NCBI RefSeq assembly: GCF_037042905.1
Contig: NC_087250.1
Location: 23,438,001 to 23,502,000, forward strand
Direction of reading: 5' to 3'
Source of the DNA: Lytechinus pictus
Lineage: Eukaryota
DNA: 64,000 nt
Positions 8,120 to 58,755 of this stretch are shown in pieces (the first letter of the stretch is position 1; every line of letters starts with the position of its first letter). The position numbers and the translations under genes are program-made. The notes under the pieces were generated by a model. It saw only the letters and a list, made by a program, of their open reading frames with translations, did no database searches and had not been told where the DNA came from.

Positions 8120-8380
8120 TACAAGGGATCAGCCTAGACAGGCCAACGGCTTATTGCTGATCCCCCACATCCACTGCTACTTAATGTTATTCACTCCTAT
8201 CTGTCCACTTTTTTACAATTGATTTATCGTGTATTTTTTTTCTTTGTTTCTATTGTGTATATTTGTATGAATATGTTTTTATATTGTGTTTGTCATTCGA
8301 ATGTTTTTATGAGAGATGTGAAATAAATGAAATTGAAATTGAAATTGAAAATTGAAATTGAAATTGAAATTGAAATTGAA
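8120..8380 (+). mobile_element. 3' end remnant of a non-LTR retrotransposon (CR1/L2-like)
   Basis: Stem-loop GGGATCAGC (8125-8133) / GCTGATCCC (8156-8164), T-rich UTR, AATAAA, then a (GAAATT)n tail at 8329-8380. Confidence 0.55.
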
Positions 8381-9612: not shown

Positions 9613-9632
9613 ATCCATGGTTCAATCATCAA

Positions 9633-9802
9633 GTCATCTTGTCGGCGCAAGAACACCCTTGACGCCACACTTCTGTGCATCACATGCATGCAAAAATGCC
9701 CTTAGCAGCGTGCATGAGTGCATTGAATGAGGGCGTTTCTGCATCTATTCAACACACGAAAAATGTTTTGCTAACAGCGTTCTTGCACCGACACGATGAA
9801 CT
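9633..9802. mobile_element. MITE with imperfect TIRs
   Basis: TCATCTTGTCGGCGCAAGAAC / GTTCTTGCACCGACACGATGA inverted pair. Confidence 0.6.
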
Positions 9803-11380
9803 GTATTATCGTAGAGACGTCCGTCATCCATTAGAAAAGTTACTTAATCATCATGTGATAGAGAAGGTGACATGAGAGTAACAATTGAAACACAACACTG
9901 CATTCTGGTTTTAATCATGCAATATCATGTAATTATTATTCATATTGAGGAAAGCGCATAGTCCATCAAATATATGTGCAATCATTTCTGAAGTTGCACA
10001 AGTAAATTATTCACACATGACCACCATCCATTTATAGTTAGGCCTATCTACTTTCATTTGAATGTACAATGTAGCTTTAGTTAATATACCCTGTGGTATG
10101 ATTGACAGGGTAATGTATCAAAACAAAATCTTCAGTTCAACAATATTTTCACTGAAAGAATCAATTCGCCATCTCAAATGGCAAAACATGGCATATTCCT
10201 CTGTTGTCAGTTTGAATGCAGTTATGCCACTTTCTATGTTTAGATAGAGATTTCATTTGTGTTCATAAGTTCTGAATGTTATAAATACATAGCGAAAGAG
10301 AAAACAAATTGAAAGAATTTAGAAAAATCACCATGAACATAAAAGCAAAATTCAAACCTTTAAGACGAATTTGAGTAATGATGAAAAAAAAACCTGAAGT
10401 AAAGGCATTTCCACTCCCACCCTTTCTTTCTTTAAAAACATTTGCTTACAAACACTGGCTCTGTTCGTATTACTGTTGTTATATTATTTAACTATACCTA
10501 ATTCTATCACTGTTACATTGTAACAATAATAGTTATGGTTAACATCATGTTATTAATTCCATTTATTCAGCCTACATTTTTACATCTTACTTGTTCTCTA
10601 AGCAGATGTACTGGCAGCTTTTTTGTAAAGTATTTATGTTTTCTTGATGTCCTTTATCTTTAACAATTTTACTTTGTTTGTTTTTTAAAGAAACTTGATG
10701 AAAATAAAACAAATGAAATAAAATGAAAACAAAAAGCCTCAGTGAAAATACAAACCCTACCCCAAATCTTTATCTCCCGTCCTGCAACACTATATCAATT
10801 GAAACTACAAAACGCACAAACAATTCTCAAGGTGTGTCCTATTCCAGGTAACCTACATCAAACCATATTTGTTCTCATTTTCTAATATCATACGCAGCCC
10901 TCTCGCCAGGTAAAACACGACATGTAATCACCTCTCTCAGACAAACACCCTCTTTCTAACCTTCTATCAATATCTTACTGATGATGTTAGCGGAGTAAAA
11001 GTCAAGTTTGGCTAAGCAATTAACCCCGAAACCTTGTTCCCTATGCGTTTTGATACAACGTAATTGAGTTAGCATTTGAAAACCAGCATCTATCCCACTG
11101 CTTTACTTCTCACTTTCCCTATGTTGGAGACGGAAACTTCATTACAACTTTGCATCAGTATACTACATTTGTGTATAGAAGAGAAGGCATATGATTCTAA
11201 AAAAAAGGTAAAATTGTCTTTGGGCTCCCAAATGATGAGGTATTTGAGTCATGGACCCTGTGACTTCTTACCTGGATACCTAACCAACGAACCACTACTA
11301 CGCCTCCATCAGAATGGAGCTGGCTCTAGAATGAAAGGAGAATGTGAAGAGACACCCTTATGTGTTCCAGGGTGTTAATG

Positions 11381-12005
11381 CCAGATGGGGATTTGAATCA
11401 ACGACCTTGCGATATGCCATGTTGTGACCTGATCACTAGACCACTCAACAAACCTCCATAATAAGAAGTAGACACTCTGCCTCCCAGAGAGTTACTATAA
11501 ATACTACCAGGTAGAGATTTGAACCAATGGCCTTCTAATTTACCACCATTTGGGTCATTTAACCACTAGACCTTCATAGATCACTCAGTAAGGGGGGAGA
11601 AGACTATTTGTGAAAAAAATACTACACATCTTCCGTCTTCCAAAGGCGGAAAAACCAGATAGGGATTTGAAAAGGTGACCCTGTGATTTACCATGCAGTG
11701 ACTTAACCACTAGACCATCGCACTTCCATGACAAGCAGTTCATTTGTTACAAAAGTTATAAATATCAATATACTGCTTTCAACCACTCTGACATTCATTA
11801 GTACCAGGTAGGGCTTTGAACCAACGACCTTACGGTTACTTGTATGGTGACATAACCAAGAAACCACTGCATCTTCAGTAAAGGTATTTGATTCCATGCA
11901 GTAGGAATGAATACAAAGTATAAACCATTCACCTCTCCGGTGTTTAAACCACCAGGCAGAACTTTGAACCAATGACCTTACTTAGTGACCTAACCACTAG
12001 TCCAT
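11381..12005 (-). repeat. Tandem array of five degenerate tRNA-like (A-box/B-box) units
   Basis: Units start CCAG at 11381, 11507, 11655, 11804 and 11952 (spacing 126, 148, 149, 148); minus-strand consensus is roughly GGTCTAGTGGTTA...AGGTCRTTGGTTCAAA.CCC.AYCTGG. Confidence 0.75.
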
Positions 12006-14149
12006 TTCATCTTCATCAAAGCCAGCTTTTGCTTAATATATTCTGCATTTTTACCTTTTAAGTTGTGATTTTACATTGCATTTATGTCTAACTCCTGTCG
12101 TTATAAGATTGTCACTTGGTTATGTACTTTAGGCCATATAATGATTTTCATGCATTGTAAATTCATTTTGTATTAATACAATATATATATCTAATCCAAT
12201 AAATGCAGAAAATCCTGAAAAAAAATCTAACTTATATGAATATATATATCATCACTTGACTGTAAAGTGATTTCTTAATCATAACTATATCTTAACACAG
12301 CAGAGAAGTAAACATAATAGGCAGCACTTTGATAAAAACACATTAAGGAAGCTTCCCACGTCTTTAGGAATGATATTTTAAGACATTTATCCATTAACGG
12401 GAAAAACCATCTCCTAATCTCGGATGAAAATTGAAAATTTGCTTTCAGCGCTGCTGCGTACGAAATGATCACCATACGCAAGACACTGGAGGGCAGGAGT
12501 GGATAAATTGCTCTAAAAACCCAACTCAGGTTTTGATGTCATTGCCGTTAACAACGGAGGAAACCTACTCAAGGATACGTCACATTCCATTACATGAGCG
12601 AGAGATCGGGTTCTTCGTTTTGAGAGGTTTGTTGGGAGTGCGTGTAGTGGTGGTTTTTCCGCTTTCGGCATGCTAACCGAGCTTTCGTTGACCTATGTAT
12701 ATTGTCTGGCAATACATGTTAACTCGATATGCAAGCCAAGTCTTGCATTACATTTATGACAAGTAAATACTGTAGCCTGTTATCTTTAGATGTTTATTAC
12801 CTCCATTTTGATTTTGTATTTTTCTTAATTAAACCTCTTCCATCCTAATTGAAATGAAATAAAATGGAAATGATCTTCAATTCGTACCTTACTTTGATCT
12901 TTGTGAACGTGAGTTTATAGAACAAAAATGTAAACATTTCAATAACACTGGCCAGAGTTACAGCCTGACCCTTGAAATGCCTTTTCTACAGCATTGCACA
13001 AATGTTTAAGGTCCAATGAAAAAGAAACAATAAACCCGTCTTTTCATGGAAGACAAGAAAACATCTCTATATCAATGGGTTTCTTTATTATAATGATATT
13101 ATATTCAGAATAGCCTATGCTTAATTTTGAGTTTTAAGCACTTTAGTAATCTCCGAAGAGAAACGCTATTTGAGGAGATAGCTTTTCATTAAACAGTCTT
13201 TATAGCCAGACTATCTTTACATACAGGTGGTTGAAATGGAGATTTGAAGCGATATCGTTTGATAGTAGGCACTATAGTGAATAAATGCAAGAAACAAAAA
13301 CTCATGATTTAACTTTTCAATTGTCACAGGTAGTGGATAAATCCTGAACAATCATATCATTACGGGTTTGTGCAATCGCAGAGATCTATCTGGAGAAAAC
13401 TGATGGAATCTTTCAACCACGACAGACATATGCTGCAGATCCTATAATTCTTATCCTTTGCTCCACTATCCTACCCTCAACTGGCCTCCAGTTACCAAGG
13501 AAGACCCCCATCTTTACTGGAAGTCAACCACTTCACCCTCTCCTTTGCCATATCGTCCTTCACCTCCTTTTCAATCAATCTCTGTCAATTTATCTTTCTC
13601 CATTCATTTGTTCCATCTCCATCTATTTGCTCTATCTCTCTCCTTTCAATTTTAACATAGACCCTCTGGTTGAAAGGTATTGCTATGCTCTTTAATATCA
13701 TGAAATAAAGCATTCATTTCTATATTTAATCCTTCTCCACCCCTTTAATTATCTTCCCTCCCTCTCCCTCTTCCTTTGTCTCCCTTCCTCTCTTCTCCTC
13801 TCGCTATCTCTTCCCCTCTCTCTCTGGTTACCACGACAACCTCATCTTTATTTGAAGTCACATCCACCCCTAATCCTTCTCATCCATTTTGATTTCAAAG
13901 CACAAAACGCTTAATCCCACGATTCCGTCTTAGCCGGGGATTTCGCTAAAGCCCCTCGCACATTTCCGACAAATCGAGGGGATGTAGCAAATCGGTTGAG
14001 GCAGTCCATCGTTTGTTCATCCGTCTTAAAGGCTCCATGTCAAAAATTTCATAAATTATCCTCTTTTTTGTCCCAGGAAGTCAATCTCTCCAAAATAGGC
14101 TTTCACTTTAGGATTTATAGTCTACACACATCCTTTGACAGCATTAGAA

Positions 14150-14173
14150 CATGGAGCTATTAATAGCTCTGTA
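14150..14173. mobile_element. 24-bp hairpin stub with 7-bp TSD
   Basis: ATTAGAA-[CATGGAGCTATTAATAGCTCTGTA]-ATTAGAA. Confidence 0.65.
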
Positions 14174-16243
14174 ATTAGAAGATACCTGAGGTTGATCATA
14201 TTTGCATTATATTTACCTTGTGGTCATAGATTTAAATTTAAAGCCAAAAGATTTGAATTCAAATTTTAAACAATCTTTTGAGATCTAAAACTTAATCTTT
14301 ATTATTAATATTTTAGACTTTATGATTAACATTTTTGAAAAATTTAATCTTTCGAGATTTAAAATCTAATCTTTAAGATTGAAAAAAAAATCAGATATTT
14401 GGCTGTTCTCTATTTCAAGCCGATCTGGACTTATTGTAAATCCTTGAAATTTAAAGTGAAAGCTTGATTTTACAGGTCCACTTTGAAAAATCCTGGTAAC
14501 TATGACACTGAAAGAACATCAGCCAGTCAGGAGTCAGTTTCATTGGTTTAACTGTGGCGTTAGCAAACGCTAAACTTGAACTCAACGCTCCCAATATAGC
14601 TGGAAGAATCTACCTTCCCTTTAAATCTTGTTCATTACATCCGATAGTCCCAGCTCGCATCAAGTCGATCCCCTTCTTTCTTTGCCTACCCTGTCCCATG
14701 GCAGTACAGACTAGCACCCAGTCACACAAAACCAAGCAATCATCATAGAACAAATCCTAACGATCGATTGCATTCACCACAATGAATGATCAATCATAAA
14801 ATGGAGAATATCATCAATTGCAAAGCCTTGTGTAAAGGGACCATAGGGACCCAGATATATGGGATTGCTGAGGAAAACCTGGATCTTATTAACAGGGTAT
14901 ACAAGGTGTAGGCCTACTCTGTGTGAAAGATTCTTGGGAAGCTATGAATCGCCATTTGGTCCAATACTATGTTGTTTAATGCCCATTTGGTCTAAAAATG
15001 TGTATTTCCCCAAAGATTTAGTTTTGGAGGTCATGTCATATTAGTGTTTTGGCAAGAATTGCTTACACCGACTATAATAATAGAATTGTTAATGGCCTAA
15101 TACATATAGTATATCCATGGTTATACACATGTAAGCCACTGAAATCCTTGCAACTAATTTTCCAAGAGCAAAAGTCTGTTTGAATCTCTGACACTTTCCT
15201 TTGTGAAATGCTTCCCAGATACAAACAAATATAAATTTGAAACTAGATGATTGCAATCAACTTATTTTATTTCAATGTCACCCTATATTGGCTTGTGAGA
15301 TTCAATGTTGATCTATAACTGGATGCTGCTTAAATCATAGATGTCATCTTTTACCGTCTACTCGTGAGTTATAGAACCCTGACATCAATTTGTATTCCTC
15401 TCACCATCTCTTCCACACCTTTCCCTATGTTCATTTCTACTTCACCCTCTCTATAAAAGCGGCTTGCCCTAGTTCAGGTGTCGATTGCGCCACGACCGAA
15501 TGGCTCCCTCGACAGTTCCGATGAGGTGAGGATAGTCGCGAATGGGATTATCAATCGCGATACACCGCATCACGCCGCCTGGCAATGAAAACATCGCAAA
15601 GACCTCCTCGCAGATTGAAAAATGGCTCACCGTTTGGGAGGATGGTGGGTTCTGTCGTCACTTTAAGCCCCTGACGACCAGGTAAACCTTGTCTTAATTT
15701 GCAGAGAAGGCGAGGTGGATTTGAGTGGTAGAGAAAGGCTTAATAATTATTAAGGAGAGCTCCAAAGACTCAACGCGTCTGCTAATTATTGTACTACTCA
15801 AGGGAAAGTCAACGTTGGATTGCACATTTCTTATAATACGCTGTGCACTGTAGAGACTTTCACAATGAGAATATATTGAACTTCTAAATGATTTTTCTGT
15901 GATAAGTGAGAGAGCTACCTACTGAAATCCTCAGTAAAATGAATCAATCATTGAAAGTCAATAAATTGTTGCCTTATGAAGTACTCTTCATTCTGATGTT
16001 TAGTATCTGTCAGAAGGTTGTCAATAGTAGATACCTTGTGTTTGAAAGGTGACACTTTAAAATTCCTTTTTATTTCAAATAGGCCTACTATTTGGCTTAC
16101 TCTTATCTATGTTAGTTTATTTTGATTGATTGAAGTGTAATGTTGTTAATATATGCAATGATGTGTCATTCTTTCTGTTGCAAGAATAAGCAAATTTTAC
16201 AAAAAAAATTTAGTTCATTTCAAGGTTCTATTCAATCGTACTA

Positions 16244-16375
16244 AGGTATTGATCCTCATTACCAGGTCCCTCGGAGAGGACCTTAAGCCATTGACCCTCT
16301 GGTTGGTTGCTTGCTTACAAGCATTCATGCTTTCTTAGCAATCAGGTAAAAAATCACTAACATTTATCACCATTT
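16244..16375 (+). mobile_element. SINE fragment (central/3' part)
   Basis: CCAGGTCCCTCGGAGAGGACCTTAAGCC resembles, from recall, a conserved SINE central domain; no tRNA head is visible. Confidence 0.35.
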
Positions 16376-18669
16376 TTACCAGAATGAATAATCTCATATT
16401 ACATAATACACATTGCAGTTAAGAACTATGAAGACAATGTATGAGCAAAACAAATAATAATCATCACATTAGTCAGTATTGTATTACTGGCTATTTTTCA
16501 TCCATGCAATTTATGATCTATGATCTAACGTTCAATAACCCGCGTTCGTGCACAGCAAAATCACTAACCGGTGTCATTCCTCAAATTGGCAGCCATATGG
16601 ACCAGCGCATAATTCCTTAACGTACCGCAAAGTTTTGCAGCCTGGCCGCCTCGCGATCTCCACGGACCTTCATTACGATAACCCACACCTCACTCCTAAC
16701 ACCTCGACGTCTCGAAAATACCAATTACCACCGATCCTGGTGGAAATGAGATAGTCTCATATCTAGACTTAAATGAATTTCATTGTATCATAAGATCAGA
16801 TTTACTCATGTTATGGTAATAAAGCAAATCCAGCTTCAGTTTTCCTGTTTTCTTGTGTTTTAGAGAGAGAGAGGATTGATGTTATGATAGTGACAAAATT
16901 ACAGTTAGCAAGAACACCTATATACTCAAACCAAGAAAATTTTCACTAACAATTCTCTGCTAAAAATGGTCTTTTGATACATAATTAATGACCAACACTA
17001 TCTTTCTTGAAAATTTTAAATTCAAATAGAGGCTACATTTACTTCGTTCAGGCCTAAATTTAGCTGTGGTTTAAAGTTCAGTATCAAATGCCCCCTTTTT
17101 GTGGCTCCATGGATCAAAATCCATCACCCCCCCCCCCCCACCTCCCTAAAACAGAACATTGCTGGTGGTCTTAACTCATTTAACCTGGGTGTTAATTTCA
17201 CCCCTTTGTTTAAATCCCCTGACAAAAGATGTAGATTACATGATATCAATTATCACTAGTGATAATAATACAAAGAGAGAATCCCTTGTATTTAATGCAT
17301 GCAGGTTTCCAGCTAGTGATCTGTCATTAGCCCAGGAGTGTGTAATATTGATGTAGGCCTGTGGTTTAGGGGGAATGAGTAGGATGGGTTTCGAATTGTG
17401 TGGCCGGTCCAAAAAAATAAAGGAGCTTGAATTTCTCCAAGGAAGGGGTGAAGTTTCTTATTCTGTGGCTGGAATAGAATTCCTTGACACCATTGTCTGA
17501 ATATTGTGGCTGGTGATCTCATAATGCAGGCAACAACCTGAGGTGGTCAAAAGTTTAAGACAGTCAATTCTTCTCAATATAGTTTTACTTGTAATGGCAT
17601 ATCGAGTGTTTAGGCCTTTAGCGCTGCAGGGATACCGATATCATAAATGATTATCAGATTGTGGATTAAAAACTTTTAACACTTCACATACTAACATGAG
17701 CTAATTATTCCACATAGGCCTAGGCATACAAATATTATTTAAGTTTGGTTTAAAATATGACTCATAAGCATTAGAGCAAGGTTTATTTTCTGGATGCCAC
17801 CCTCCATCTCTTCATAATTTTGATAAAATAAAAAAACAATAAGGAGCGCTTTGTCACCGTTGGGGGAAAGGGTTCACCCTTTTACAAACCAATAAGATGT
17901 CAATATTCCAAGAAGGCCTACACATTCAAACATAATTCAAGTTTGGTCAAAATATGAGCAAGATGTATAATCTACCCCCCCCCCCCTTCAGACATTTTTT
18001 TTTAAAGATCAATAAGGGCACTTTTAGTCATTGATGGAGCAGGGCTTAACCCCTGTGCACACCACCCCTATGAACTTCACACCCTCTATCATGTAGTCAT
18101 TCTGTGTAAACCAACACCATTTCTCCCATTCACTTGCCTGTGTGATGACAGGGTCGGAGTCACGAGAAGGACTTGTTGTGTTAACGAAAACTAGTTTCGA
18201 ATACATGGATATAATAACACCAAGCCACAAATACTAGTAGCACTTATAGCAGTCATAACTCATCCGGTAGTTTTCCTTTTTACCTATAGGATTATCTAAC
18301 AATTACTTGTATGTCGATTTCACTTGTCTTATTTGAGATGTTCTGGGCACTTTATATATTGTAGATTTTGTAAACGAATAATCGGTCCCTTTGAGATCCA
18401 CTGATTGTGCTGAAATTATAGTATCCGCAATCATTGCACAGAGCAGCTTCTTGCACGTAAACGAATGTGAATCTCACCAAATCGAAACTATGCCTGTTGA
18501 TATGGTGGCGGGGGCAAGCAGGAGGCAACGGGCAGAAATCTTGTTAACTATGCCCTATGCCTGTTGCCCTTGGAAACCTCTTTAGTTTGTTGTTTTGCAG
18601 GCATGGTTAGAAACATAACCTGACTTTTGACCAATCATATTACTAGATTATTCAACATTCTGAAAGAGG

Positions 18670-19255
18670 AATATAATAAGAAATAGTTTCATGGAAAGGA
18701 ATCGCTTCAAGAATATACTTTCCCTTTTTAAGACTGTCCAAGAAGGAAGTTTCATGGACCAGAACTGCTTTAAGAAACTCAAAGAACAAATCCCAAAGAC
18801 CAGAACTGCTTCTAATAATATCTCAGAATTAGTCACATGGACCAGTATTCTTCTAGAATATCCAAGAACAAGTCGCATGGACCAAAATCACTTCACTATT
18901 ACAAGAATGAGTTTCATGAAATGGAATTGCTTCAAGAATGCAATTTCCTTTAGGACAGTCCAAGAACAAGTCTGAAGGATAAGACATGCCTTCAAGAATT
19001 CTCCAAAAATGTACCTTCCCTTTAAGATCTTCCAAGAAGGAGTCTCAGGAGTCAGGAAAGCATTGGACAAAGACCACTGGAAGTTGACATAAAAACTAAA
19101 CAAGGATTTGTAGGTGATGAGATGAGGCATGCCTTCAAGAATCTGACTTCAAGAATGCATCTTCCCTTTAAGATCTTCCAAGAAGGAGTCTCAGGAAAGC
19201 GATGGACAAAGACCACTGGAAGTTGAGACAAAACCTAAACAAGGATTTGTAGGTT
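18670..19255. repeat. Degenerate tandem repeats ending in a ~130-bp direct duplication
   Basis: GTTTCATGGA...GCTTCAAGAA recurs; 18986-19115 aligns with 19128-19254. Confidence 0.8.
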
Positions 19256-20175
19256 AAGGCGGAGACACCACCTCGGTCTGTAAAAATAGCCCATAGCGAC
19301 AGTCACCACGGCGATACGTGATGGGCATGCTGGGAAGGGAAGCCGGGCAGCGTGGACCGCAGAGAGGTGTAAGTCTACCAGTGACAGACAGGGGTGAAGG
19401 GATAGTACAGGGTGAGAAGGAAAGTTGAGATGGAGGTTGTTTAGGGGGGTGGGAGTTGGAGTGAGAGGTGACCATGTACTTTTAAACGGTGCTATTACTG
19501 GCTGTGAAAGGGCTACTCGAGGGAGATGTGAGGATTGATCTTTATAGGCAGGTCTGGGCCTCCCTCTCACGTCCCTGGTCTTACAAAGAGTTACAATTGA
19601 TCTTATCAACCTTAACTGCATGGAAATCCATCAATTTCATAATTTTTTCCACAGGAAATTTTCATAATATCCTTAGGAAACAAAGAGAAGCATACCAAAT
19701 TTTCAATGAATGTATGAATATACATCATATCTAGGAAATATTTTGAACAAACATGCATTTTGTATGTTGACGTTGCTGGCTTTCCATAGTCTTGGTTGAT
19801 CGGATCAATCGCAACTTTTTGTAAGTCGGGGCCCAGGTGTCCTCTACGGACAGGGTTTCCTGAAGTACATGTCTCTATGAACAACCATTCAAAATATATA
19901 CCCCAAAATATGTATGTATTGTCTTCAGAATTATGCAAATAATATGCAAATGATATGCAGAATTGCTGTGGCACTTCCAATGCTAATTTTGTTCACCTCT
20001 CCAAGAGCAATGACGAGTTAATTTTTTAACCGACTTATATGTTGGTTAAGCAATATTTGAGAGTATATGCACAGGGCCCATCTTATTTTAAGTAACATGA
20101 GCAGCATGTTAGACATTCCATAGTTGACATGTTAAGCTTTCTATACTTGGAGTAAGAATATGTAAAGAAAGAATA

Positions 20176-20260
20176 ACTTACCTGTTTGATGTAAAAAGAA
20201 GATGACAAGAAGGTCCGCACATGAAAAATAAAGAGAAAAAAAACACACATAAATTAGCAC
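20176..20260 (-). promoter_or_regulatory. Candidate recursive splice site (3'ss abutting 5'ss), junction 20181/20182
   Basis: Minus strand reads GCTAAT (branch-like, 20253-20258), then a pyrimidine-rich tract with no AG for 76 nt (20184-20259), then ...CTTCTTTTTACATCAAACAG|GTAAGT. Confidence 0.7.
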
Positions 20261-20839
20261 TTAGTTTGAACTAAATTACTCATTACAATAGTGTAGTATC
20301 ATGCTGTATTTCCTTCCTCATTTTATCTCCTATATGACAGAGATCAAACTTTGGACACAATATTTTCTGTAATTATACAATATTAGTCTTATGGCACATC
20401 ATGACGTCATAAGTACAGAAAATAGTTTAAAAGGGAGCTACTGATACTATTCCCCAGAATATATGCCCTTAGTTCATCATCTTCAAAGCATCAAATCAAA
20501 CCTTACAGCATTTAGAGAAATGTTCGAAAAATATACGTCACAACTTCTAGACCTGTACGAAAAACTACAAAGCACAAACAAAGGGGATTCCCAAATGGAT
20601 GTTAGTCTTCATAATTGGATCCAACAGAGGAAGAGAAAAGAGACTTAAAAGGGCCGTCCGAACAGCCTACACCTTTTGAATAGGACACCTTGTACCCTAG
20701 GGGTATAGCGTCTAGAAGGGTGTTAAAAAGGAACAAAGCTAATACTGCACTGCCCTCAAACATAGCCCTGAAACGTCCTCCAAAACGCTTATGAGCAGAC
20801 ATTTATAAGTGTGAAGTGATTCTTTAGTTGGAGGAAATC

Positions 20840-20978
20840 GGGGAGGGTTTCATGAGAAGCTTTATCAGTGAACTTCATCAACTCTGTTCCACTCAGCCAA
20901 TCAGATGCAAGAATTTTTGTAGCTTTTAACAGTTATAAGTGAAAATCACTGACTACACATTTCATGTAATGCTCCCCT
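20840..20978. mobile_element. ~135-bp MITE (GCATCTGATTGGCTGA family)
   Basis: TIR-like ends GGGGAG..TTTCATGA / TTCATG.AATGCTCCCC; related copies at about 24151-24288, 26431-26560, 26640-26767, 38630-38761, 53185-53315 and 60972-61092. Confidence 0.8.
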
Positions 20979-22771
20979 GATGGAGATGCTTAAAGTAGGC
21001 TTCTGTGAATGCAAGTTAAGTGCATGCTTAGTGCATAAGCCCATCCAACAATGCAGTACATACAGATAGTTTGATTTTAAAGCCTTTAAACATACACAGG
21101 CCTACATTATGTAGATACATGGGTTCTTTTTAAAGCTATTTTTTAAGAATGTGTTTATTCTGAAGAGGGTTGTCTTTAAGCATGTAGCCCTTTTAGTTTG
21201 GTGACATCTTCAAAAGAAGTTGGGGCTTTTTTTTACAAGCCTACTATCCGAACAGACTAGGTGACTCTATAATGCCTTGATCACTTTCAGATACAGACAT
21301 ATTTTTTAACTTATGAATTCCCCCCCCCCCCCTTCAAAAAAAGGAAATAAAATGTACGAGGCAATATGGAAGGAGCTATTATTATATTCACACTATCCAA
21401 AATATTTGAGAAATGCCAGAGTAAAAAGGCAAAAATAGAAAATACAAGGTAGATAGACTATTGGTTATCATCATCACAACAAAAGTTTCCCAACACCACT
21501 TGTACAAAAACTTAATACTTTTAGCAAACTTTTGTATCTTCAGTTTGCAAATGTTTGCTACGAGATCAGACTCCTCAGAGAGTACCTATCTATTTCAAAT
21601 TTATAATGGTTTTATTTTTATTGGTTTTTGGCTTTGAGACAAAGTAAATTCATGAAAAGGGTGGCATTCCGTAAAATAATGTACGAAAATCACAAAATGT
21701 GATTTTTCTACAATATGAGTGGATAGTCCCTGACCCCTCGTTAGAAGACCTACATTTCATAAAGTTATTAACCAAAAAAGTATACAATCCATTCAAGATC
21801 ACAATGACATGTGATGCAAGAAAATAAAACACCCAAATTTACCTTTCTCAAATCTAGACCAAACAAATAAGAATTTGAAAACAAGCAATACAAGCATAGA
21901 TATAGAGGAATTACCACTAATATTTCATACAATTATCATTCATTATATCCGACCTTGAACAAATTTTCATTCTTCCTTCCCTTTTGGGGATAAGGTCACG
22001 TTTTTCTGACCACTTTTCTTTTCCATTTCCTGCCGGTTCTATTCTTTCGCCTCCACCACTACTGCTTGAATACATGTGCCTACCATGTGTGTGTGTGTTT
22101 GAGGTAGCTTCCAAAGTGGTTTACTCCTCAAATCCATCCCAACAATCAAACTATTAAACGCAAATATTATTCCCTCTCGCTTGTCAAATAATTACCCCGT
22201 AGCCCGAGGGGGCGCGGAATATCGCTAATTCCTCGTAATTTCCAAAAGAAACGGCCAAACATGCGCGACCTCTACCCGAACAAGAGGGCATAAACGCGCT
22301 TAATAGCACGCCCTGCAAAAACATGCTTTGTGAGAAGCATACCAAATATACAGCCAATATAAAGGGCTTAGGGTTCGGGAACAAAGACCAACACGAAAAT
22401 GCATAAGTTGTGCTACCCCAGTACTAAACTAACTATATTATGATGTTAATGCAGACAGGCTGTACAGAATGGAGGATTAAATGCATTCACACACATGGCC
22501 TTGTTCCCATTTACAAAATCATTAAGAAAATTACAGATAATTACAAAGTTATTTCTACCTAAAGCACTGAATGGTATGAATGTATATACAGCAAACAGAT
22601 GGGAATAAGTGTTTGGTAAACCGCAGGATTAAATCCAAGAAAACAAAATTAGAAGTCTTTAGGGGAGAAATAGAAAGTTGAGCTAAAAATAACTTTCCAG
22701 TATTATCTCAAATTTATCCTGTACAATCATTTTGGAATGATTTAGAATATAGATGAGAGCCTAGGTACTAT

Positions 22772-22819
22772 CATGGAGCTATAAATTTGAGATAATGATG
22801 GAAATGTAATAGCTCTATG
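22772..22819. mobile_element. 48-bp hairpin stub with 7-bp TSD and templated filler
   Basis: GTACTAT-[CATGGAGCTAT...ATAGCTCTATG]-GTACTAT; filler 22781-22804 matches the reverse complement of 22694-22717 at 22/24. Confidence 0.75.
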
Positions 22820-23021
22820 GTACTATTAAAGTGGAATTTGTTCCTACATGTAAGAATCATAAAAGATGTAATGAAATTTAGTAACTGTTGTATCAAGAAT
22901 ACAATGAAAGTAACATAGTCTGTATAATAAACTAATATCTGCATGCACACCCCCCCCCCCCAGAACTTGCAAAATAATGTCTCTATTTCTTTCTTTTCCC
23001 CCTACTTTTCTAAAATCTTTA

Positions 23022-23435
23022 GGCCCAAATTCACAAAGGTGGTTTTGAAAACCCCTGGCTGAGTCCATGGTTTATGCAGATATACTGTATAAATTACGCT
23101 TAATTACCGCGTAAATTAAAAAATGTCCAATGCTGATGCGCGCTTTTGTCACAGTGCACCGAATTGACCCCTGTTGCCGTGGTTATCCATGCTATTTTAC
23201 TCATGAGTCCATTGTTTTTATTCATTAGTCCACTCTTCAAACAGGGGACTCATGAATGAAATAGCGTATCTAACCATGGTAACAGGCGTCAATGTTGTGC
23301 ACTGTGTCAAAAGCGCGCATCAGCATTGGATATTTTATATACACGCGCTAAATTAAGCGTAATTTATACAGGAAATCAGCATAAACCATGGATTCAACCG
23401 TGGGTTTTCAAAAACCACCATTGGGAATTCGGACC
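23022..23435. mobile_element. Long palindromic (foldback) element, arms about 190 bp
   Basis: e.g. CTGTATAAATTACGCTTAATT / AATTAAGCGTAATTTATACAG and TCCAATGCTGATGCGCGCTTTTG / CAAAAGCGCGCATCAGCATTGGA; central loop about 30 bp. Confidence 0.9.
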
Positions 23436-24150
23436 ATGAGGTTTGGTCAGATCTTAGGAAATAAGTCTTAAAAAATATAATATCACATTTCACACCTTTA
23501 TTTCTCCTTTCAATTAATACACTCACTAATCACACAAGCAAAATAGGCTAATCTGAAACAAAAATGAATATATTACAATGCCCGTTTTCATTTTACACAA
23601 GCAAACAATTTAATTTTCAGGTCAGTGCTTATATACAGGTGAAGGTTTGTTAGAAATCTGAGAGGATTTTTTTTCAGGTCAATAGACCAAAATACAATAA
23701 AAACATAGTCATAGACAAAAATACATGTGTTGACCCCCCCCCCCCCCAAAAAAAAAAAAAAAAAAAGAAAATAACAAAATGGTGAAATGAATATATCCTT
23801 TTTGAGCCATGGGTCATTTTCATAACCAAACCAGGTGCAACTATTTTAGTATATAATATTTTTTTTCTAAATTTTCCTTTTAATTTTCCTTTTCCATCCA
23901 GACCCCCCCCCCATTCATAATCACTTAGCCATTATTAAATATATTATATTGTACCATCATTGGGAGGATTGCATATGTACCTATTGAGCCTTCCCTATTG
24001 TTGCCATAGAAATTCTTGTACTAAGTATGTGTTGATGTTTTTTTGTGGGGAATTCATACTGGTGTCCAAAGCCTTCGGCCAGGATTAGGACTTTTTCAGT
24101 TTGATCAAAAAGGCGATTGATCCAGAAAGGGTAGGATAAATAAATAATAC

Positions 24151-24288
24151 TGGGAGGTTTCATGAAGTGATGTGTCCCCCTGACTTATACTCAAAACTGT
24201 TATAAGCTACTGAAATTCTTGCATCTGATTGGCTGAGAGCAAATTTGTCAGTGGAAATCAATGACAAGATGCTTCGTGAAAGACCCCC
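24151..24288. mobile_element. MITE (GCATCTGATTGGCTGA family)
   Basis: Homologous to 20840-20978 in the opposite orientation. Confidence 0.75.
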
Positions 24289-24594
24289 AATGGTTTAGCC
24301 CGTTATCAAAGGAAAGAGAAAGTACTCCTCGAAAAGTAGCGTTCTTGTGAGCAACCTGGTCTAACATTAGGCCTAGACCTGATTCATTGATAGGCATAAT
24401 CACTGATAGGCCTAATTCCAAGATAGACTTTACTCTACACTACAGCTACAACCAGTTGGTCTAGTACTACAAATTAGGACCAAGTGGGTGATGTTTGGTC
24501 CAATTACCACAAAGTTTATACACTTGGGATAATAAATGTCATTTAGCCTAATAGCCAAATCAAAACCTTTTTTATCAACTGAGATAACCCCTCT

Positions 24595-24765
24595 ATGACA
24601 AGTTGGTCTATGATACTTTGCCTTTGGTCTACAAGTTGTTCTATGATGCTTCGATCTACAAGTTGGTCTATGATATTTTGATCTACAAGTTGGTGTATGA
24701 AAATTTGGTCTAGAATAATTCAGCCTATGGTATATTATTTTGGTCTATGAAAAGTTTGGTATCTT
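24595..24765. repeat. Degenerate minisatellite (ACAAGTTGGTCTATGAT-like, ~27-32 bp period)
   Basis: Motif repeated 5-6 times. Confidence 0.7.
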
Positions 24766-25139
24766 ACCAGCCATCTACTAAGATAGACAGCTCTGATTAA
24801 TGGTACAGATACATTCATGCAAATGACACATTTATATTAGATAAATCTATCAAATAAAAAAACTACTGTAATAAATCAATGAATGTATGCATGCAGCATA
24901 AACACTTAATACCTGGCTCAACATTTTTGTTTTCAAAGTAATATTCGGAAAGAGAAGTGAAATCTAGTGCTACAACCAACCGAAGGCATCAACCTTAAAA
25001 AGTGCATTTCGTATAACCCTCTTACTTTTCCTGAAGCTAGAATTAACCGAATAACTAAAGTCCAAGTTGAAATACAGACTAAAGCAAATTGATTGCATCG
25101 TCTGCAAAGCCCAAGCAAACCCAAACCAATTGCCAACTT

Positions 25140-25229
25140 TAATCCAAATCTCATCAAACTGCTCCTCCCCTCCCGGCATATTTAATCCAATAATATTTAG
25201 ATAATCCCCCTTTAATCCACTTATAATCC
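25140..25229 (+). promoter_or_regulatory. Cluster of five TAATCC (K50 homeodomain: Otx/Pitx/Gsc-type) sites
   Basis: TAATCC at 25140, 25183, 25202, 25213 and 25224. Confidence 0.55.
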
Positions 25230-25404
25230 GAATGATAATTCATAACCATCTTTGCGGAGAATAACGGGGTCGTTGAATGTCAGAGAGATGTATTACGTGG
25301 ATTTAGGTAGAATGAGTCAACGCTGGTTTACAAGAAGATGTAAACTAACATGCGTTTCAAGTAAAATATTTAGGAATCTTAACAGGATTAAGAAGTTTAT
25401 AGAC

Positions 25405-25593
25405 CTGGGGGCCATTTCATAAAACTGATTGTAAGTTAAGAGCAACTTTAAGAACGACTGGTGATCCTTTCTTGTGGTAAATGATATTAGCCATTCAATG
25501 TTCATTGGTGATTATTTAGAGCATAAGAAAGGATCACCAGTCGTTCTTAAAGTCACTCTTAACTTACCAACTGCTTTATGAAACATCCACCAG
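25405..25593. mobile_element. Palindromic MITE
   Basis: ACTTTAAGAACGACTGGTGATCCTTTCTT / AAGAAAGGATCACCAGTCGTTCTTAAAGT within inverted arms of about 70 bp. Confidence 0.85.
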
Positions 25594-26430
25594 ATTTATA
25601 GAATAATGTGATTAGGCACTCTGCAGCAATTAATATTCTTGAAATGCATTGCCAAGAGCGATCCCTTTTTAAAACCACATTTATATTACAGGGAAATGGA
25701 AATTCCTAGAAGAATATGACTAAGGGGGTGAATTCTAGTTTTAAAAGTGCAGTCCAATTTACAAGAAATTTGAAAGAAAAGTTTGCAGAAGTCTTGAATT
25801 GCTTATAAAACGGTTACTTTTACACAGGGATGGCATACAACATTTTCAAACAGTATTCTAATGATCACTAAAAAGATAGTTTGGTGGTTATTTTACTCGC
25901 ATTGTACATTTCACCTACATGTATTACCAAATGCAAAGAATAAATTCATTTTTGTTTACAAGATGTATTTCCACCAAACTTGCATTTAGGTCACCATGTT
26001 TCTATCTTATCTTATCCATGTTGATATGTACCATAATAAGAGCAGGACATAGTATTATGTGATTATTTACATTTCGTTCTTTGGACTCTACTTGCACTAC
26101 AATCTACAATGATTTTTCTTCTGTTGTTGTTATTGCTGTTGTTGATATATCGTTGTTCTTGATATGGAAATTGAAAAAAAATAAAGATTCATTCAACATA
26201 GTAAAACTGCAAAAAAAAGAATCAGTTGGCCTCACTTTTAGCTTTATTTCAAAAAGCAGTAAATAAAATATTTCCATCTAAGCTTGAATAACAATCACAG
26301 TACGCATCTTCCTAAAACACCCAGACAAAGCAGAACAAGGGGAGAGATAATAAGAGATACCTGACAAATGTTGATTTTGAGATAACCTTCATTATATACA
26401 CTGACAGTTTGATCCCACACCTCCCATCCA

Positions 26431-26767
26431 GGGGGGCACTTCAGGGAACAAATAGACAGTGATTATCACTGGTTATTCGTTAAAAGCTACTGATATCCTT
26501 GCATCTGATTGGCTCAGAGGAAAGTTGTCAATGACAAGATGCTTTGTGAAGCACTCCCCAGGCTCTCTGCAGCAATGACCTTTGACCTTTAGATCCAGGT
26601 CATGTTCATGTGGTTAGTAAGATCAAGCTTGGAAAAGCTGGGGTGAATCTCATGAAGAGATTTACCAGTGGATTTCAATGACAGCTGTTATAAGCTACTG
26701 AAATGCTTGCACGTGATTGGCTGATAGCACATTTGTCACTGAAAAGGTTTTTCATGAAATGCTCCCC
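26431..26767. mobile_element. Two adjacent MITEs of the GCATCTGATTGGCTGA family
   Basis: Copies at about 26431-26560 and 26640-26767 share AAGCTACTGA.AT.CTTGCA..TGATTGGCT. Confidence 0.75.
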
Positions 26768-28354
26768 ATTGGTGTGGTCATAAATCAGAGGCCCATTACG
26801 ACTGTGTTTGGCGCTTTGGGAAAACAGGGCATTCCTCATGAGCGCAATTTCTTGGCATGTTGTGGGCATTTTGAGGTCCTTTGTGATTTATCAAGAGATG
26901 ATAATATGCTGGAGCAGTTTTTTTTTTCATAGAGTATCTGCATCTAGGGTTGTGGGTAGGGGTGTTAATGCTAAGGGAATGTAGGAGGTGTTTTGAACTG
27001 GTGAGCTTGGTTAGGGAGAAAGAGGAAGGAGAAAGATGATGAGGAAGAGGAAGAAGAAGGGGAAGAGGATCGGGGTGAAAGAGAGGGGAGGGGGAAGAGA
27101 GGAGAAGATGGAAAATGAAATGAGGACAATCATGAATCACCCCCCCCCCCTCAAATAAATTATACATTGTAATGTGCTGAAAGACATTGTTTGATGTATT
27201 GAATACTAATATTAAACATATTATACTCATAATTATTTTAACAAATTTACCTAGAAAGTAATTTCTAAAATCATACTTCACAAGCTTGCCTACTAGATCC
27301 CTGAGTCGAGAGTTGTCATGGAAAGGACTGAATATAATGTATATCAGTTAGTTTAAACTTGGGGAAAATCACCCCTAAACAAAGTGACAATTAGTCCTTA
27401 CCTTCTTTTCCTTTCTGAAAGATTTTCACAACTCTTTTCTTCTTGGTCAAACAACCAACTCACTATCTCTATCATCACACAATATTATTTTTCATCTCAT
27501 AAAAAACTTTTCCCTACCCAATTTATGGTCACAAAGGGCAGTAAGAGCAGACATTTATCACTTCTCTGAGACCAGTTAGGCCCCTTTGGACATGTTATTT
27601 ATGAGTTTACAGAGTACCAGTCTGAGCCTTTGATAACAGAAACAACACTTGGGAAAGCAAATGAAAATGGACTTGACTTCTGGCATTTGGAAGGAGAGAA
27701 GCTCCACGTTTGAGGTCACAAAAATTGATAATATGCATAGGAAATAGGCATACACAATTGAAAGTACAAAGATATTGGGTAGAAGTGTATTTCCAGGAGC
27801 TAGTGTGTAAACAAAATAAAGGCATACATCAGGCTCACAGCAATCGGGCAAACCAATGTCATGCAATACAGAATAGAGAGATCTTTTCACATTGCATTTT
27901 AAGTTGGTCAATCGTTCTGTGCTAAATTGTAGTTTGAACAATTATTCACAATAATTATGAGATATGATTTATTATCTACCATAATCAATTAGCAGGGAAC
28001 TCAAGGCACCATGTAAAAATCACTTTTTTCAAATTTATAGGAATGTCTTAATTAAAAAAAAATTAATTCAACTGTAATGCTGTTAAAGGCCTATATATTT
28101 AACCTTCACTTTCAGGAACACTCAATAAACCATCTGTCCTGCGAGTCTAACCCTAAAACCTCAATCATAACAAAATATCAACTTGAGAAGTGCAATTACC
28201 CCACTTCACGCTCTTAACAATTCAATTTTTATGCAGGTGGCGAAAAAAAAAATCCTAAAATCTTATCACAATGGAAAAAGTTACACCTAGAATATTCAAC
28301 ACATCATCATCAAGCCTACAAGCCGGTTTCTCTCTCCCCCTTATTCTTGCCCCG

Positions 28355-28392
28355 AGGTCGTCCGAGGTCAATTTCATGACCTAATGGGGTCA
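28355..28392. promoter_or_regulatory. Nuclear-receptor half-site cluster (DR4 + IR6 + ER4)
   Basis: AGGTCG-tccg-AGGTCA-atttca-TGACCT-aatg-GGGTCA. Confidence 0.45.
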
Positions 28393-30539
28393 AGCTTATT
28401 TGCGGTCATTGTGCTTGAGCTTCGGTATGAAGCGTTTAAAGATGCATTAAAAATTGGAGGGTTTTAAAAGGGATTGGTTTCTATTCAAATAGCGTTGTAT
28501 GGATATTTCTTGAAAAACATTGATTTTTACATGCGGTAATTATATTTGAGGTGACACGAGTATAAAGGGTTTGGATTTGTGCAGGTTTTGATAAAACTCA
28601 GGTGTTTTGTTTGTATACAAGGATCTGAGCTGATGGTGGATGGACAACTTTGTTAACAGGTAAAGTTATGTATTTTTGTTGAGATTTTTCTCACTTCTGA
28701 TTTCTAATGGTTGCCCCCCCCCCAAAAAAAAAAAAGGCCAAACAGATAAAAGTATTGCTAGTAGTAGCAAGATCATATTTCACTCTATTAAATCAAAGAA
28801 TTTCAATTCTTATTTGTTGTATTCTTTTGAAAAAACCTATCCAACTATTCATACCATAAAAAGGCCCCCCCCCCCCCCCCACTTTCCCCACCTATCTCTC
28901 CCTCATTCTCTTTCTCTCTACCTCTTGCTCTTTCTTTCTCTTTGGTAAATTAAAATTGATCAATCAATCAAGCAATGGATATGGATCATTTCTTCTTTAT
29001 CTTATTCATGTTCTCATTATCATTAGGGGCCTTTATTTTGTTGTCTTTCACATTCTTGGTCCTATGCCCCCCTCCCCCCCCCCCCCCCCAGCTACACCTC
29101 TCCTCTCCATTTTCGTTTCATCCACATCATTCCAGAAAAGATACAAGCATTATTTGGTCTCTGTTTGGCATCCAAGCTCAGAAGAATAGATCAGCTCTAC
29201 AGTACATAACACAATCATATCTTAAAAACTATCTTTCATCTGCCTTGATTCATTGATGATAACAGATTTTGCTTGGATTATTCCATTAATGATCTATCGA
29301 CCCTCTGGGAGAGTGCATTGTGGGTAATCCTTTCTTTTAGTTATAGCTTCAGGCGAATTAGAATATTGACAAAATATAGGCCTGCTCCACTAAAAAGAAT
29401 CAACATAATCAACGATAAAAAAGATAAGGAAGGTTGTGTCATAACTTCTAATCAATGTCGGGACAAGAATGCATGATTTTAATTTACTTTGGGTTCTTGT
29501 TATATAAATGAGGTACCCCTCTATTTTTGCTCCCCCCCCCCCCACCTCATTTCCTTCCTTTTCTACTTTTCTTAAATTTCAATTGAAAATATAACACACA
29601 CCCCTTGCCTCAACCTTTCATTTTCTCTCTCTCTCCTTACACTTATCTCTTTCTTTTCCATCCCCTATACCCCTTTCCTAACCCCCCCCCCCCCCCCGCC
29701 ATGACACCTACTTTAATCTTTTCAATGCCACGCTTGTATTGTGTGTACACATGCAATCATATCTGATTATTTTCATTTTGACACATGCATTCACTTCATT
29801 ATCTTTGTTCCAATAAAAGTTTGATCTTTAAAAGTCTTTTGTTTAAAAATTATTGAATAGATCTTGTTTTTGGTAGAATCAATGTATTGACTTTAATTGA
29901 CTGGAATTGCAATCAATAAACTTGAATTTTATAGACCGAACGAATGATTGTGTTCCGATAACAGTTATGTCTGTATGTGTAGTGCTTGTTTGCCACACAT
30001 CAAAACATTAATCCAGGCAAACTTTCTACTCCCCTTCGCAACGCCTCACCTCCTCTCCAAAAATATATCTGGCCTGAAAATATCTCTATCTCTGAAGTTG
30101 TGTATATTTGTGAAATATTCATTTATTTCCATGTTTCTTATTACTTCACTCATCTTTGATCTTGATTTTCTCTACATTTCTGGTATAATATTCATTTCTT
30201 ACGATTAAGTTTGCCTGCACTTTTGAAATTTTCAATATTTTTGTATAATTATATTCATCACGTTTCATTTGGCAACTCACGCTGCACATACAAAACTGCA
30301 TTCAAAGAAATCAACGCATTAATCAGGCTAATACATATAAAGCAATCAGCAAGTATAAAAAGATCATGACATGGAGATAACCACGATGCACGCTCTTTTT
30401 ATAAAGATGAGCAGTCGAGCAGACAAATCTATATTGTTAAGCAGACTTTTGTCATATTCTGAACAAAAATCCCCGGGATATTGAACTCATCCGTGACTCA
30501 TGCTTCTACTGCTTGAGGTAGAATGATAACATGAATATG

Positions 30540-30735
30540 TTTTGCTATATACTTCTGTCTGTGAGAGGGATGTCTGTTCACATATTGGTTGTATTCAATT
30601 AAAACTTTTTAACTTACAAACACATATTTTCAAATTCATTTTTATAAAGGCCTACTTCTGTCTATGGTAGCGATTGCTGTTCACATACTGATTGCATTCA
30701 ACTAAAACTTTTTACCACACAAACACATTTTCAAA
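30540..30735. repeat. ~105-bp tandem duplication
   Basis: TACTTCTGTCT...CTGTTCACATA.TG.TTG.ATTCAA.TAAAACTTTTTA occurs twice. Confidence 0.75.
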
Positions 30736-32341
30736 GACACCTAAGTTTTGCATTTTGCTGTACTCCTACAGTGATTACAATTAAGATAAGATGCATTCAA
30801 TCTCAACCAGTTTATCATGCAAACACGATTCAAAAATATTAATAGATATGTTGTATGTTATACTATATAAGCCTACCACTGCATACTTTTGTATGAATAC
30901 ACATAACAAAATAACTGACTCTTTTGAAAATGAGTGACCTCCCCTTTAAAACGGACATTCTATTTAAAAAGGGAGCTCATGCATTCTCAATAGCCTTATA
31001 GTGCAGCTTCTTGATCCCAGTCTTCGGTCATAAATAACCTACAACTATCAAGTACACAGGGCCAATGGCAAAGCGATCCCTCATGCAATATAACAAACTA
31101 TCTCATATTTTTGCACAAGCATGGCTGGGGTGAACCCATGCGTTATGAATGACCGAAATTGGACAAAAGCAGCGAAAACAACAGAGAGAATGGGAAGAAG
31201 AAAGGGGGAAGAGCGGACGAAAATGAGATCAGCTCGGAAAGAAAGGAGGGCAAGGAATCGCCCTCAGGTGGAATCATGATTCACAAATTGAAAAAAATAT
31301 TACCATCACGACCATCATCGGCATAGCACAGATATTGGGCCTATCTTGCCATGCAGTGCTATATTTATGCCTATCAAATGCTTCTTCCTTACATGGGGGA
31401 ATATCTTTAAGGCTATTCCCCCACATTGTACTCTGAATATTGCTTGTTTTGTACAAATTTTGCCCTTTATTCTGACGAAATAAATAGATAGTTAGAAAGG
31501 AGCTCCGCCAGGGGGAATTAGAGCACAAAAATATGATATTTACTTGCCTGTGAATAGACAGCTTCATTTAGACTGAGAAAAAGCTTGTTTGTCTCATATT
31601 TTCGAGTATCATTGGATGAAAGTTGCAAAAAGGATTCATAAAGATATCCCTACAGAAATACAAAGCCTAATTTTTGCTCGTTTGAAATGCTAGTAACTAA
31701 ATAATCACCAGTTCGAGCAGTAAATAATACAAATAATATAATGAAGAATGTAACTTGTTAAGTGCCAAATCCACTCTGCAACTGCCTGAAGTGCATCTAG
31801 GAATATTCATCCTCAAAAGTTTGCTCAAAACTTGGATGACCTTGAGAGGGGGTGTTCATCACACAACTCAAGGAATAATAATTGGTGCATTCACATATTA
31901 GATGACCCTCCCCCTTTCACACACACACATAACAATTGAAGATTACTCTCTAAAGTCATAATGCTTATTCCAAAAAGAAAAATGCATCTATTGGGGGCAG
32001 GAAAGAAAAAGAAATCTTTGAAATGTGAATGGACCATGGATCCAATTTACTATAGAACCATTTTCATTATTACGGAGTTTCTCTCTTTCTTGTTGTGATA
32101 TTACTGCAAAGGTCACCAAGATCATCAGATAACCTAGGTTCAAAACTTGTTCTCATTTAATCGCTTAAATCATATCTTGACATGTTATCTCCATGTTAAA
32201 TCGTTTTAATCATAACTTGGAAGAGATAACACGGATGGTTTGTTTAAAATCCTTTTTGAAAATTTGAGCTCCCAATTTACTTCGACATCAATTACGAAGG
32301 AACCTCCAACATCAGGCAAGGTAAGGTATTGGTGTGTGAAC

Positions 32342-58754: not shown

Positions 58755-58755
<1 letters not shown>

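Follow-up and report, generated by a model that had tools for sequence, protein, structure and literature searches.

Ratchet points and RS-exons in Drosophila are fused YAG|GTAAGT junctions in long introns, found only on the sense strand, with several in each intron spaced 10-30 kb apart, and leaving zero nt in the mRNA. As described in the accessible text of Duff et al. (10.1101/006163), fly ratchet points have branch points mapped at -21 to -36, with the pyrimidine tract next to the AG; according to Joseph et al. (PMC8605326), they rely on a cryptic exon that is closed by a donor downstream, the RS-exon measuring about 50 nt. Sea urchin introns >50 kb have RP-sites 8.2-fold enriched on the sense strand (Shepard et al., PMC2773006); that survey used the human consensus with its adjacent tract, and the accessible part of its text describes neither a displaced tract nor an upstream CAT. 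How an exon without nucleotides is recognized when its acceptor and donor overlap is a long-standing question, to which the downstream cryptic exon is the accepted answer. In introns with distal branch points, scanning picks out the first AG. In Drosophila, exon 3 of Sxl, with SPF45, is reportedly a two-AG acceptor, in which one AG serves early recognition and the other serves ligation. Microexons regulated by SRRM3/4, in the published descriptions accessible to us, combine a long AG exclusion zone and a long branch point-to-AG distance with a CU-rich tract, CUAAY, UGC between tract and AG, and a strong donor.

The window analyzed here (the whole 64-kb stretch of DNA, positions 1..64000, or C6:23438001-23502000 in the 811.7-Mb assembly of Lytechinus pictus), read on its minus strand, is assigned from its sequence to intron 1 of an ephrin gene. 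The intron is 184,628 nt long and of phase 2; on the minus strand it runs from a phase 2 GTAAGT donor at C6:23514086 (window coordinate 76086) to an acceptor at C6:23329459, before the ephrin-domain exon 2. Exon 2 lies on the same strand as exon 1 and matches Pfam PF00812 (C6:23329161-23329460, E 2.6e-20), the only ephrin-domain match in the genome, and the first atlas match is Ephrin (0.91). Exon 1 encodes a signal-peptide-like N-terminus and sits in a CpG-rich stretch at window coordinate 76-78 kb, and the reading frames of the two exons join in frame. CpG observed/expected is about 1.0 at exon 1, 0.7-1.2 past coordinate 100000, and mostly 0.3-0.6 over the intron (window coordinates -100000 to 76000), the low intronic values being those that a methylated gene body would be expected to show. 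Outside repeats the window contains no long coding frame, and a simple exon finder run over 264 kb returned no convincing coding exon, exon 1 also being missed by that finder. On the plus strand, a 206-codon open frame covers a three-copy 165-bp tandem repeat, and there are TCCA and ATTC microsatellite arrays (window 43680-44297, 34167-34585 and 2370-2866).

YAGGTAAGT occurs nine times in the sense orientation of ephrin intron 1 and zero times in antisense. AG-free zones of 76-150 nt precede eight of the nine sense sites, a zone of at least 76 nt being reached by just 1.4% of the intron's 10,812 AGs; because no AG lies upstream for 76-150 nt, the AG-defined exon length at these eight sites is zero. 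They cut the intron into pieces of 24.6, 11.1, 20.2, 26.4, 27.3, 13.0, 24.6, 17.9 and 19.6 kb. The fused junction, the sense-only orientation, the several sites per long intron and their spacing are all like those of Drosophila ratchet points, and we conclude that the eight are very probably recursive splice sites, and used recursively. The ninth sense site, a TAG|GTAAGT at window coordinate -30148 (C6:23407852, minus), has an AG 11 nt upstream, lacks a tract, and is probably unused. A SINE-like repeat with CCAG|GTGAG on either strand and no AG-free zone (window 109-116, minus; 4965-4972, plus; further copies in the flanks) is a source of false ratchet calls.

Three of the eight sites lie inside the window, and five more of the same build are found at window coordinates -6194, -33489, -46464, -71042 and -88935. 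Their order of elements is a branch-point-like motif, a T/CU-rich tract, N-CAT|G(T), a 38-49-nt AG-free spacer and YAG|GTAAGT; all positions that follow are on the minus strand of the window, and the branch points are predicted. Site 1, the first candidate ratchet point at 24,574 nt into the intron, has a branch-point-like CTAAC at 51587..51591 (A at 51588, -76 from the junction and 36 nt before the CAT end), a displaced pyrimidine tract at 51556..51572, an 11-mer at 51549..51559 whose acceptor-shaped CAT (51555-51553) ends 40 nt before the junction and is followed by GTGC, and a fused acceptor/donor TAG|GTAAGT at 51507..51515 (junction 51513/51512) behind an AG-free zone of 150 nt. At site 2 the branch-point-like motif is TTGAT (40462..40466, A at 40463, -73), the pyrimidine tract at 40436..40456 ends in G-CAT with the CAT (40438-40436) 45 nt before the junction, and the fused CAG|GTAAGT occupies 40385..40393 (junction 40391/40390, AG-free zone 81 nt). 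Site 3 has a branch-point-like CTAAT at 20253..20257 (A at 20254, -73, 34 nt before the CAT end), a displaced pyrimidine tract at 20224..20243, and the 11-mer at 20217..20227, with an acceptor-shaped CAT at 20223-20221 that ends 39 nt before the junction and is again followed by GTGC; an AG-free spacer from CAT to junction (20185..20220), the proposed pseudo-exon body, leads to a fused CAG|GTAAGT at 20176..20184 (junction 20182/20181, AG-free zone 76 nt).

An earlier note on this DNA had pointed to a motif shared by two of these sites, at minus-strand 20239-20217 and 51570-51549, that ends 35 and 36 nt before the AG|GTAAGT junctions 20182/20181 and 51513/51512, and to TTTGC/TCTGC motifs at the site with junction 40391/40390; we find all of these in place. 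We also confirm that the surroundings of the motif are not duplicated: blastn of the 900-nt flanks gave no match between the two 11-mer sites at E<=0.01, and other site pairs share stretches of 21-39 nt at most, one paralogous pair elsewhere in the genome (L006 and L007) excepted. The bin that holds site 20182 has a depth of 2.2 in one run and 0 in another, whereas repeats in these runs reach thousands, and with unrelated flanks and such low depth the motif does not look like the remnant of a dispersed repeat, an origin that the note had itself considered. Its description of the motif as position-fixed stands only loosely: in this intron the CAT ends 40, 45, 39, 44, 49, 38, 43 and 47 nt from the junction at the eight sites, a range of 38-49 nt rather than a constant -35/-36, and genome-wide the range is about 25-80 nt.

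Comparison of the eight sites indicates that the shared 11-mer is the best-fitting version of a wider element, tract-N-CAT. The most pyrimidine-rich 16-mer is followed by CAT within 4 nt at 8/8 sites, compared with 13/79 control AG-free tracts from 274 kb (Fisher 3.5e-6), and at 6/6 when the two 11-mer sites are left out (P=6e-5), under a rule picked after the sites had been seen; the same rule finds CAA at 0/8 and CAC at 0/8. The element has the consensus TTNCAT|GT, ahead of the YAG|GTAAGT junction. Anchored on CAT, the profile has T at -6 and -5 in 8/8 sites, a free -4 position (T3 G2 C3), G at +1 in 5/8 and T at +2 in 5/8, and is the acceptor consensus, quoted as (y)nNCAG|GT in PMC2773006, with the last G swapped for T. 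The CAT position thus has the tract, the free -4 base, the C at -3, the +1 G and the branch-point-like motif 20-40 nt upstream that characterize an acceptor, but carries AT, not AG, at -2/-1 in 8/8. The last 15 nt before the junction are 47-73% pyrimidine, against 88-100% in the displaced tract. We regard the CAT element as highly likely to be under selection.

A dinucleotide-shuffle test of CAT (8/8, P=1.6e-4) was set aside in favor of the tract-conditioned test, because shuffling destroys the tract and CTT scored equally. Two other readings of the trinucleotide were rejected. As a translation start, with CATG marking tandem first exons, it would give ATG-TGC-TGA at site 51513, and 3/8 sites have no ATG; neutral decay of old CAG acceptors would favor the transition CAA, yet CAA is not enriched.

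Predicted branch points lie far from the junction. A YTRAY motif falls 28-37 nt before the CAT end in 9/12 sites (the eight ephrin sites together with L001, L002, L003 and L007, the last four picked by the 11-mer), and YTRAY motifs in this set are 63-91 nt from the real AG; the other 3/12 have no YTRAY at the expected distance from CAT. Among the ephrin sites, YTRAY occurs at -70 to -82 in 6/8 (13% expected, P=1e-4, in a window chosen afterwards), CTAAY occurs in 4/8, and weaker YTRAY motifs lie at -28 to -37 in 2/8. The predicted branch point is about equally tied to the AG and to the CAT (SD 12.1 vs 10.3 nt). This is in contrast to Drosophila, where, as far as the accessible accounts go, the branch point lies close to an AG with the tract beside it, whereas here the predicted branch point is placed at -73 to -91 and the tract stops some 40 nt short, in N-CAT|G; measured to the CAT instead, the YTRAY distance of 28-37 nt matches the fly branch point-to-AG distance of -21 to -36. 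The ephrin sites also differ from the fly RS-exon, with its downstream donor, in having no excess of such donors: the best score 20-150 nt downstream equals that of random intron positions (P=0.63, with an approximate weight matrix).

The element recurs across the genome. The 11-mer followed at 20-50 nt by YAGGTAAG occurs seven times in 811.7 Mb, against 0 for the reversed-pattern control, and all seven have AG-free spacers; six of the seven loci are independent, L006 and L007 being paralogous (80% over 940 nt). A 128-variant form of the 11-mer pattern gave 11 matches against 7 in the control, in raw count no excess by itself; 6/11 are AG-free, and all 6 are the exact 11-mer. A strict pattern for the wider element (nine pyrimidines, N, CAT, 24-52 nt, YAGGTAAGT) gave 88 matches (control 56). 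AG exclusion is not expressible as a pattern; the matches listed were scored for AG by eye, and the genome-wide tests rest on these hand-scored AG-free fractions. On this scoring 37 matches at 35 non-repeat loci are AG-free, 10 further AG-free matches belong to one inverted-repeat family, and 41 contain an AG (29 unique, 12 in three repeat families). For raw counts, reversed patterns provide a weak null, as a scrambled donor is also above its own control (63 vs 29).

Spacers between tract-CAT and a true donor are AG-free at 35/64 non-repeat loci, against 13/49 with the scrambled donor (P=0.004), for which 63 matches were obtained and 14 from one repeat family dropped; that family has a tract-GCAT with TAG about 45 nt later and no donor. 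Replacing CAT by CAA or CAC gave 73 matches, 20 of them AG-free at 19 loci, and 4 of these have a CAT 2-3 nt later; the comparison of 35/64 for CAT with 19/65 for CAA/CAC gives P=0.008 with repeat families counted once (P=0.0009 uncollapsed). TAT alone is not enriched, with 13/26 matches AG-free and 9 of the 13 already CAT sites. The excess amounts to about 24 AG-free loci over about 11 expected. G follows CAT at 20/35 AG-free loci, against 4/29 AG-containing loci (P=0.0006) and 3/13 AG-free matches with the scrambled donor (P=0.052). Seven pairs of neighbors lie <150 kb apart, 2 of them in the ephrin intron, and all 7 are co-oriented, where 0.23 would be expected. These results bear out the earlier proposal of a dedicated cis-element, which is not a repeat, upstream of candidate zero-length exons.

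Spacing has a lower limit. Within the range searched, CAT lies 27-54 nt from the junction (median 43). Spacers of 0-23 nt show no excess (23 matches vs 29 in the control; 0.96 per offset where the background is about 1.4), in line with the prediction of a minimum-distance model, and there is none below a CAT-to-junction distance of about 26 nt. At 53-81 nt there is a tail, in which 18/40 matches are AG-free in the visible 80 letters, with about 11% expected. The strict pattern fits just 3/8 ephrin sites, suggesting that the true number of loci is probably two to three times higher. A tract pattern without the anchor gave 154 matches against 282 in the control (100 of the 154 listed), and is a lead only.

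Several loci show how the element varies. The paralogs L006 (C21:4183130, minus) and L007 (C21:11487235, plus) have CAT-to-junction distances of 54 and 35 nt with tract, CAT and junction kept, indicating that spacer length is flexible; C14:6806074 and 6832968 are another duplicated pair. A MITE-like family, arranged as inverted pairs about 210 bp apart, ends in tract-ACAT, a spacer and CAG|GTAAGT (11 matches, 10 AG-free; C2:35382235/35382448 and C5:37609766/37609979, also on C9, C10, C12 and C15), and is possibly a seed for new sites, or a chance match. A single GAG interrupts the spacer at sites of the same build at C18:24915929, C13:15137325 and C10:3050933; GAG may be tolerated there, in which case the AG-free criterion undercounts. 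The AG-free loci at C1:20876434 and C15:30948815 have tract-TATG for CATG, a possible rare variant.

The match of one contig begins exactly at a predicted junction. We compared two of the three runs listed, X1 and X3, over window 12500-26500; none of the runs listed is on record as RNA. In record 15 of X3, a 408-nt contig, letters 23-408 match minus-strand 20181-19796 with no difference, and the first 22 letters do not fit the genome upstream, in an orientation that assumes that the first letters map to the high coordinate. Position 20181 is the G of the donor, and the chance that one of the 15 listed contig ends falls on it is about 0.001. At the first base before 20181, exon 1 and the genomic sequence already disagree, so that joining to exon 1, or a lariat junction, would break the match exactly there, whereas unspliced RNA, DNA or inclusion of the stretch after CAT would run on past it. 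The contig edge is as expected for a recursive intermediate: one suggestive piece, not proof, from a run that may be DNA. No joint at site 3 appears among the X3 matches listed, which are mostly downstream of the site and none of which spans the element, and nothing in X1 matched at site 3. We claim no saw-tooth coverage, as contigs cannot show coverage shape and gaps between them prove nothing.

We tentatively explain the CAT element by an acceptor-mimic, or pseudo-exon, mechanism, to which we give a little less than an even chance. At a zero-length exon, acceptor-recognizing factors and U1 would be unable to bind together, as their sites overlap. With the branch point and tract moved about 40 nt upstream and ended by an acceptor-shaped CAU|G, there would be a pseudo-exon of definable size, spanning the mock acceptor to the strong junction donor, with U1 on that donor. 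Branch point and tract would be bound at -75 to -45 and CAU|G would mark the start of the mock exon; CAU would not be used in exon ligation, branching would take place at about -75, and the first AG would then be used, the AG-free spacer keeping the junction AG unique as first AG. Ligation would regenerate exon 1|GUAAGU, and the cycle would repeat. The motif would be the 3' end of a displaced branch-point/tract unit, at ratchet points that would split the intron into nine pieces of 11-27 kb. We infer the protein contacts and the order of events in this scheme; the layout, its statistics and the lower distance limit are observed.

Compared with the fly model, where a real acceptor is paired with a cryptic downstream donor, the proposed mechanism is a mirror image. 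It is also like Sxl exon 3 and the scanning introns, in that the recognized acceptor would be apart from the ligated one and the zone from branch point to AG is AG-free; in Sxl exon 3 both sites are AG, whereas here the upstream site is AT, and stands at a recursive junction.

The weakest step of this mechanism is the reader of CAU. In the accessible text of PMC4536312, the fission-yeast U2AF small subunit shows no detectable CUAUG binding, A at -1 is better (Kd 111 uM) than U, and the Q151R mutant is the sole binder of CUAUG, at 53 uM, all CUAUG binding being measured on 5-mers without a tract. As far as the accessible text of PMC7505975 goes, the small subunit of U2AF makes contact with the -1 G at O6, N1 and N2, and prefers +1 G, and -3 U over C. 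These affinities predict CAA or TAT, not CAT, and argue against a literal U2AF35 decoy, which we regard as poorly supported. The mechanism in its full form is possible but doubtful: a genome-wide class of recursive sites would be defined from upstream by a full mock 3' splice site with CAU|G at its end, about 40 nt before the junction, paired with the junction donor and bypassed at ligation, with an altered-specificity factor as reader, such as an AU-accepting variant of the U2AF small subunit or an eMIC-domain partner.

The earlier note had linked the sites to the machinery for neural microexons. On this reading, which is compatible with the acceptor mimic and which we consider unlikely, they would be zero-length microexons that the SRRM3/4 eMIC domain promotes through UGC immediately 3' of the displaced tract, with CAT a by-product of the UGC context. 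The resemblance in layout stands: the sites have a long AG-free zone, a CU-rich tract, a CTAAY-like branch point and TGC 3' of the tract, and in the accessible parts of the sources fly eMIC exons have long AG-free zones, CU-rich tracts, CUAAY branch points and UGC (10.1101/2021.02.24.432780), and human microexons have a functional UGC between tract end and AG (10.1101/2024.09.17.613571). What does not stand is TGC as the core, because the invariant part is tract-N-CAT. At 7/8 sites a TGC begins between -5 and +10 nt from the CAT end, and TGC is found 12 times in the spacers against 5.0 expected from pyrimidine-matched AG-free windows (P=0.006), yet against dinucleotide shuffles it is not enriched (P=0.21); under one rule CAT is present at 8/8 sites and TGC at 6/8, and one of the 8 has no TGC in 130 nt. 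Genome-wide, TGC lies near CAT at 18/35 loci, compared with 1/13 (P=0.007, scored by eye), leaving 17/35 without it.

eMIC UGCs are described close to the 3' splice site, whereas the anchored TGCs here are 35-52 nt from the AG, and tract-CATG before exons of 3-12 nt shows no excess (43 matches vs 68 in the control, about 8 of them AG-free). Published SRRM3/4 microexons are retained and regulated, with UGC near the acceptor and, in the accessible descriptions, no invariant CAU, whereas here the AG-defined exon length is zero, which leaves no short exon to be retained in the mRNA at the eight sites. According to the accessible text of PMC8797185, eMIC activity is neuron-restricted in non-vertebrate bilaterians; a giant intron would presumably need removal wherever the gene is expressed. 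A profile search with PF15230 (eMIC) gave no match, but gave none in the control either. Two candidate 6-nt microexons (AG|6 nt|GTAAGT) lie behind AG-free zones at C3:39493503 and C11:2097633.

It is distinctly unlikely that some other RNA-binding protein, one that recognizes the sequence U-rich-CAU(G)-UGC at the tract end, connects the distal branch point with the junction, the acceptor shape being coincidental. Such a protein would account for the specificity for CAT over CAA, CAC and TAT, which is unlike U2AF small-subunit affinities, and for the exact 11-mer at 6 independent loci, but not for the way in which the free -4 base between the invariant T's and CAT, and the preference for +1 G, copy acceptor geometry. 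The known candidates also fit poorly: Nova-type YCAY clusters are not enriched (10 vs 9.9-10.1 expected), and the Rbfox-type UGCAUG is present in 1/8 sites only.

We consider it improbable that CAU-N-UGC pairs with the donor GUAAGUG in a hairpin that keeps U1 off the donor until excision of the upstream piece, and brings the tract near the AG. The arms pair with the donors better than shuffled arms do (-7.0 vs -5.5 kcal/mol, P=0.013), with no covariation between them: own pairs score -7.03 and swapped pairs -7.09 (P=0.53). The donor-arm pairing probability is 0.47-0.91 in 4/12 sites, but <0.1 in 5/12, site 20182 among them. Moreover, perfect pairing would favor CAC with a following T, whereas CAC is not enriched and G is commonest after CAT.

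Still less probable is that AT serves at CAT as a genuine non-canonical acceptor, with the 38-49-nt stretches as cryptic or poison exons. The acceptor geometry is indeed complete, from branch point through tract to CAT|G, and a strong donor comes after it. However, 6/8 lengths would disrupt the reading frame at this coding intron, which is of phase 2, and 3 have in-frame stops; 15/35 of the genome-wide lengths are multiples of 3, with no clear bias; the X3 contig match stops at 20181 and does not reach 20220; and the consensus YAG, as the first downstream, should win. Chance, or descent from one dispersed repeat, is already largely refuted and very improbable, even though most of either motif is T/C tract, the strict pattern is matched by two repeat families (20/88 matches) and two genome-wide pairs are local or segmental duplicates, since the two 11-mer sites share no flank similarity, depth is low at 20182, and the strand bias, the clustering and the conditional CAT test all oppose it.

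We conclude that this is a real, genome-wide, non-repeat element: recursive sites were already known, and the CAT variant is new. Our search of the literature accessible to us found no account of recursive sites whose displaced tract ends in an acceptor-shaped CAT. Against the accepted answer to how an exon without nucleotides is recognized, the sequence here points to another, in which the extra signals are all upstream and an invariant non-AG trinucleotide stands at the acceptor position. The element is short, with eight copies in one intron and a few dozen other loci, and is open to single-base testing. If the proposed mechanism is true, it would be a second solution to zero-length exon recognition, a mirror image of the RS-exon in flies and vertebrates; it would offer a new sequence criterion for recognizing recursive sites that are underrated when an adjacent tract is scored, and it would be a natural case of acceptor recognition split from exon ligation.
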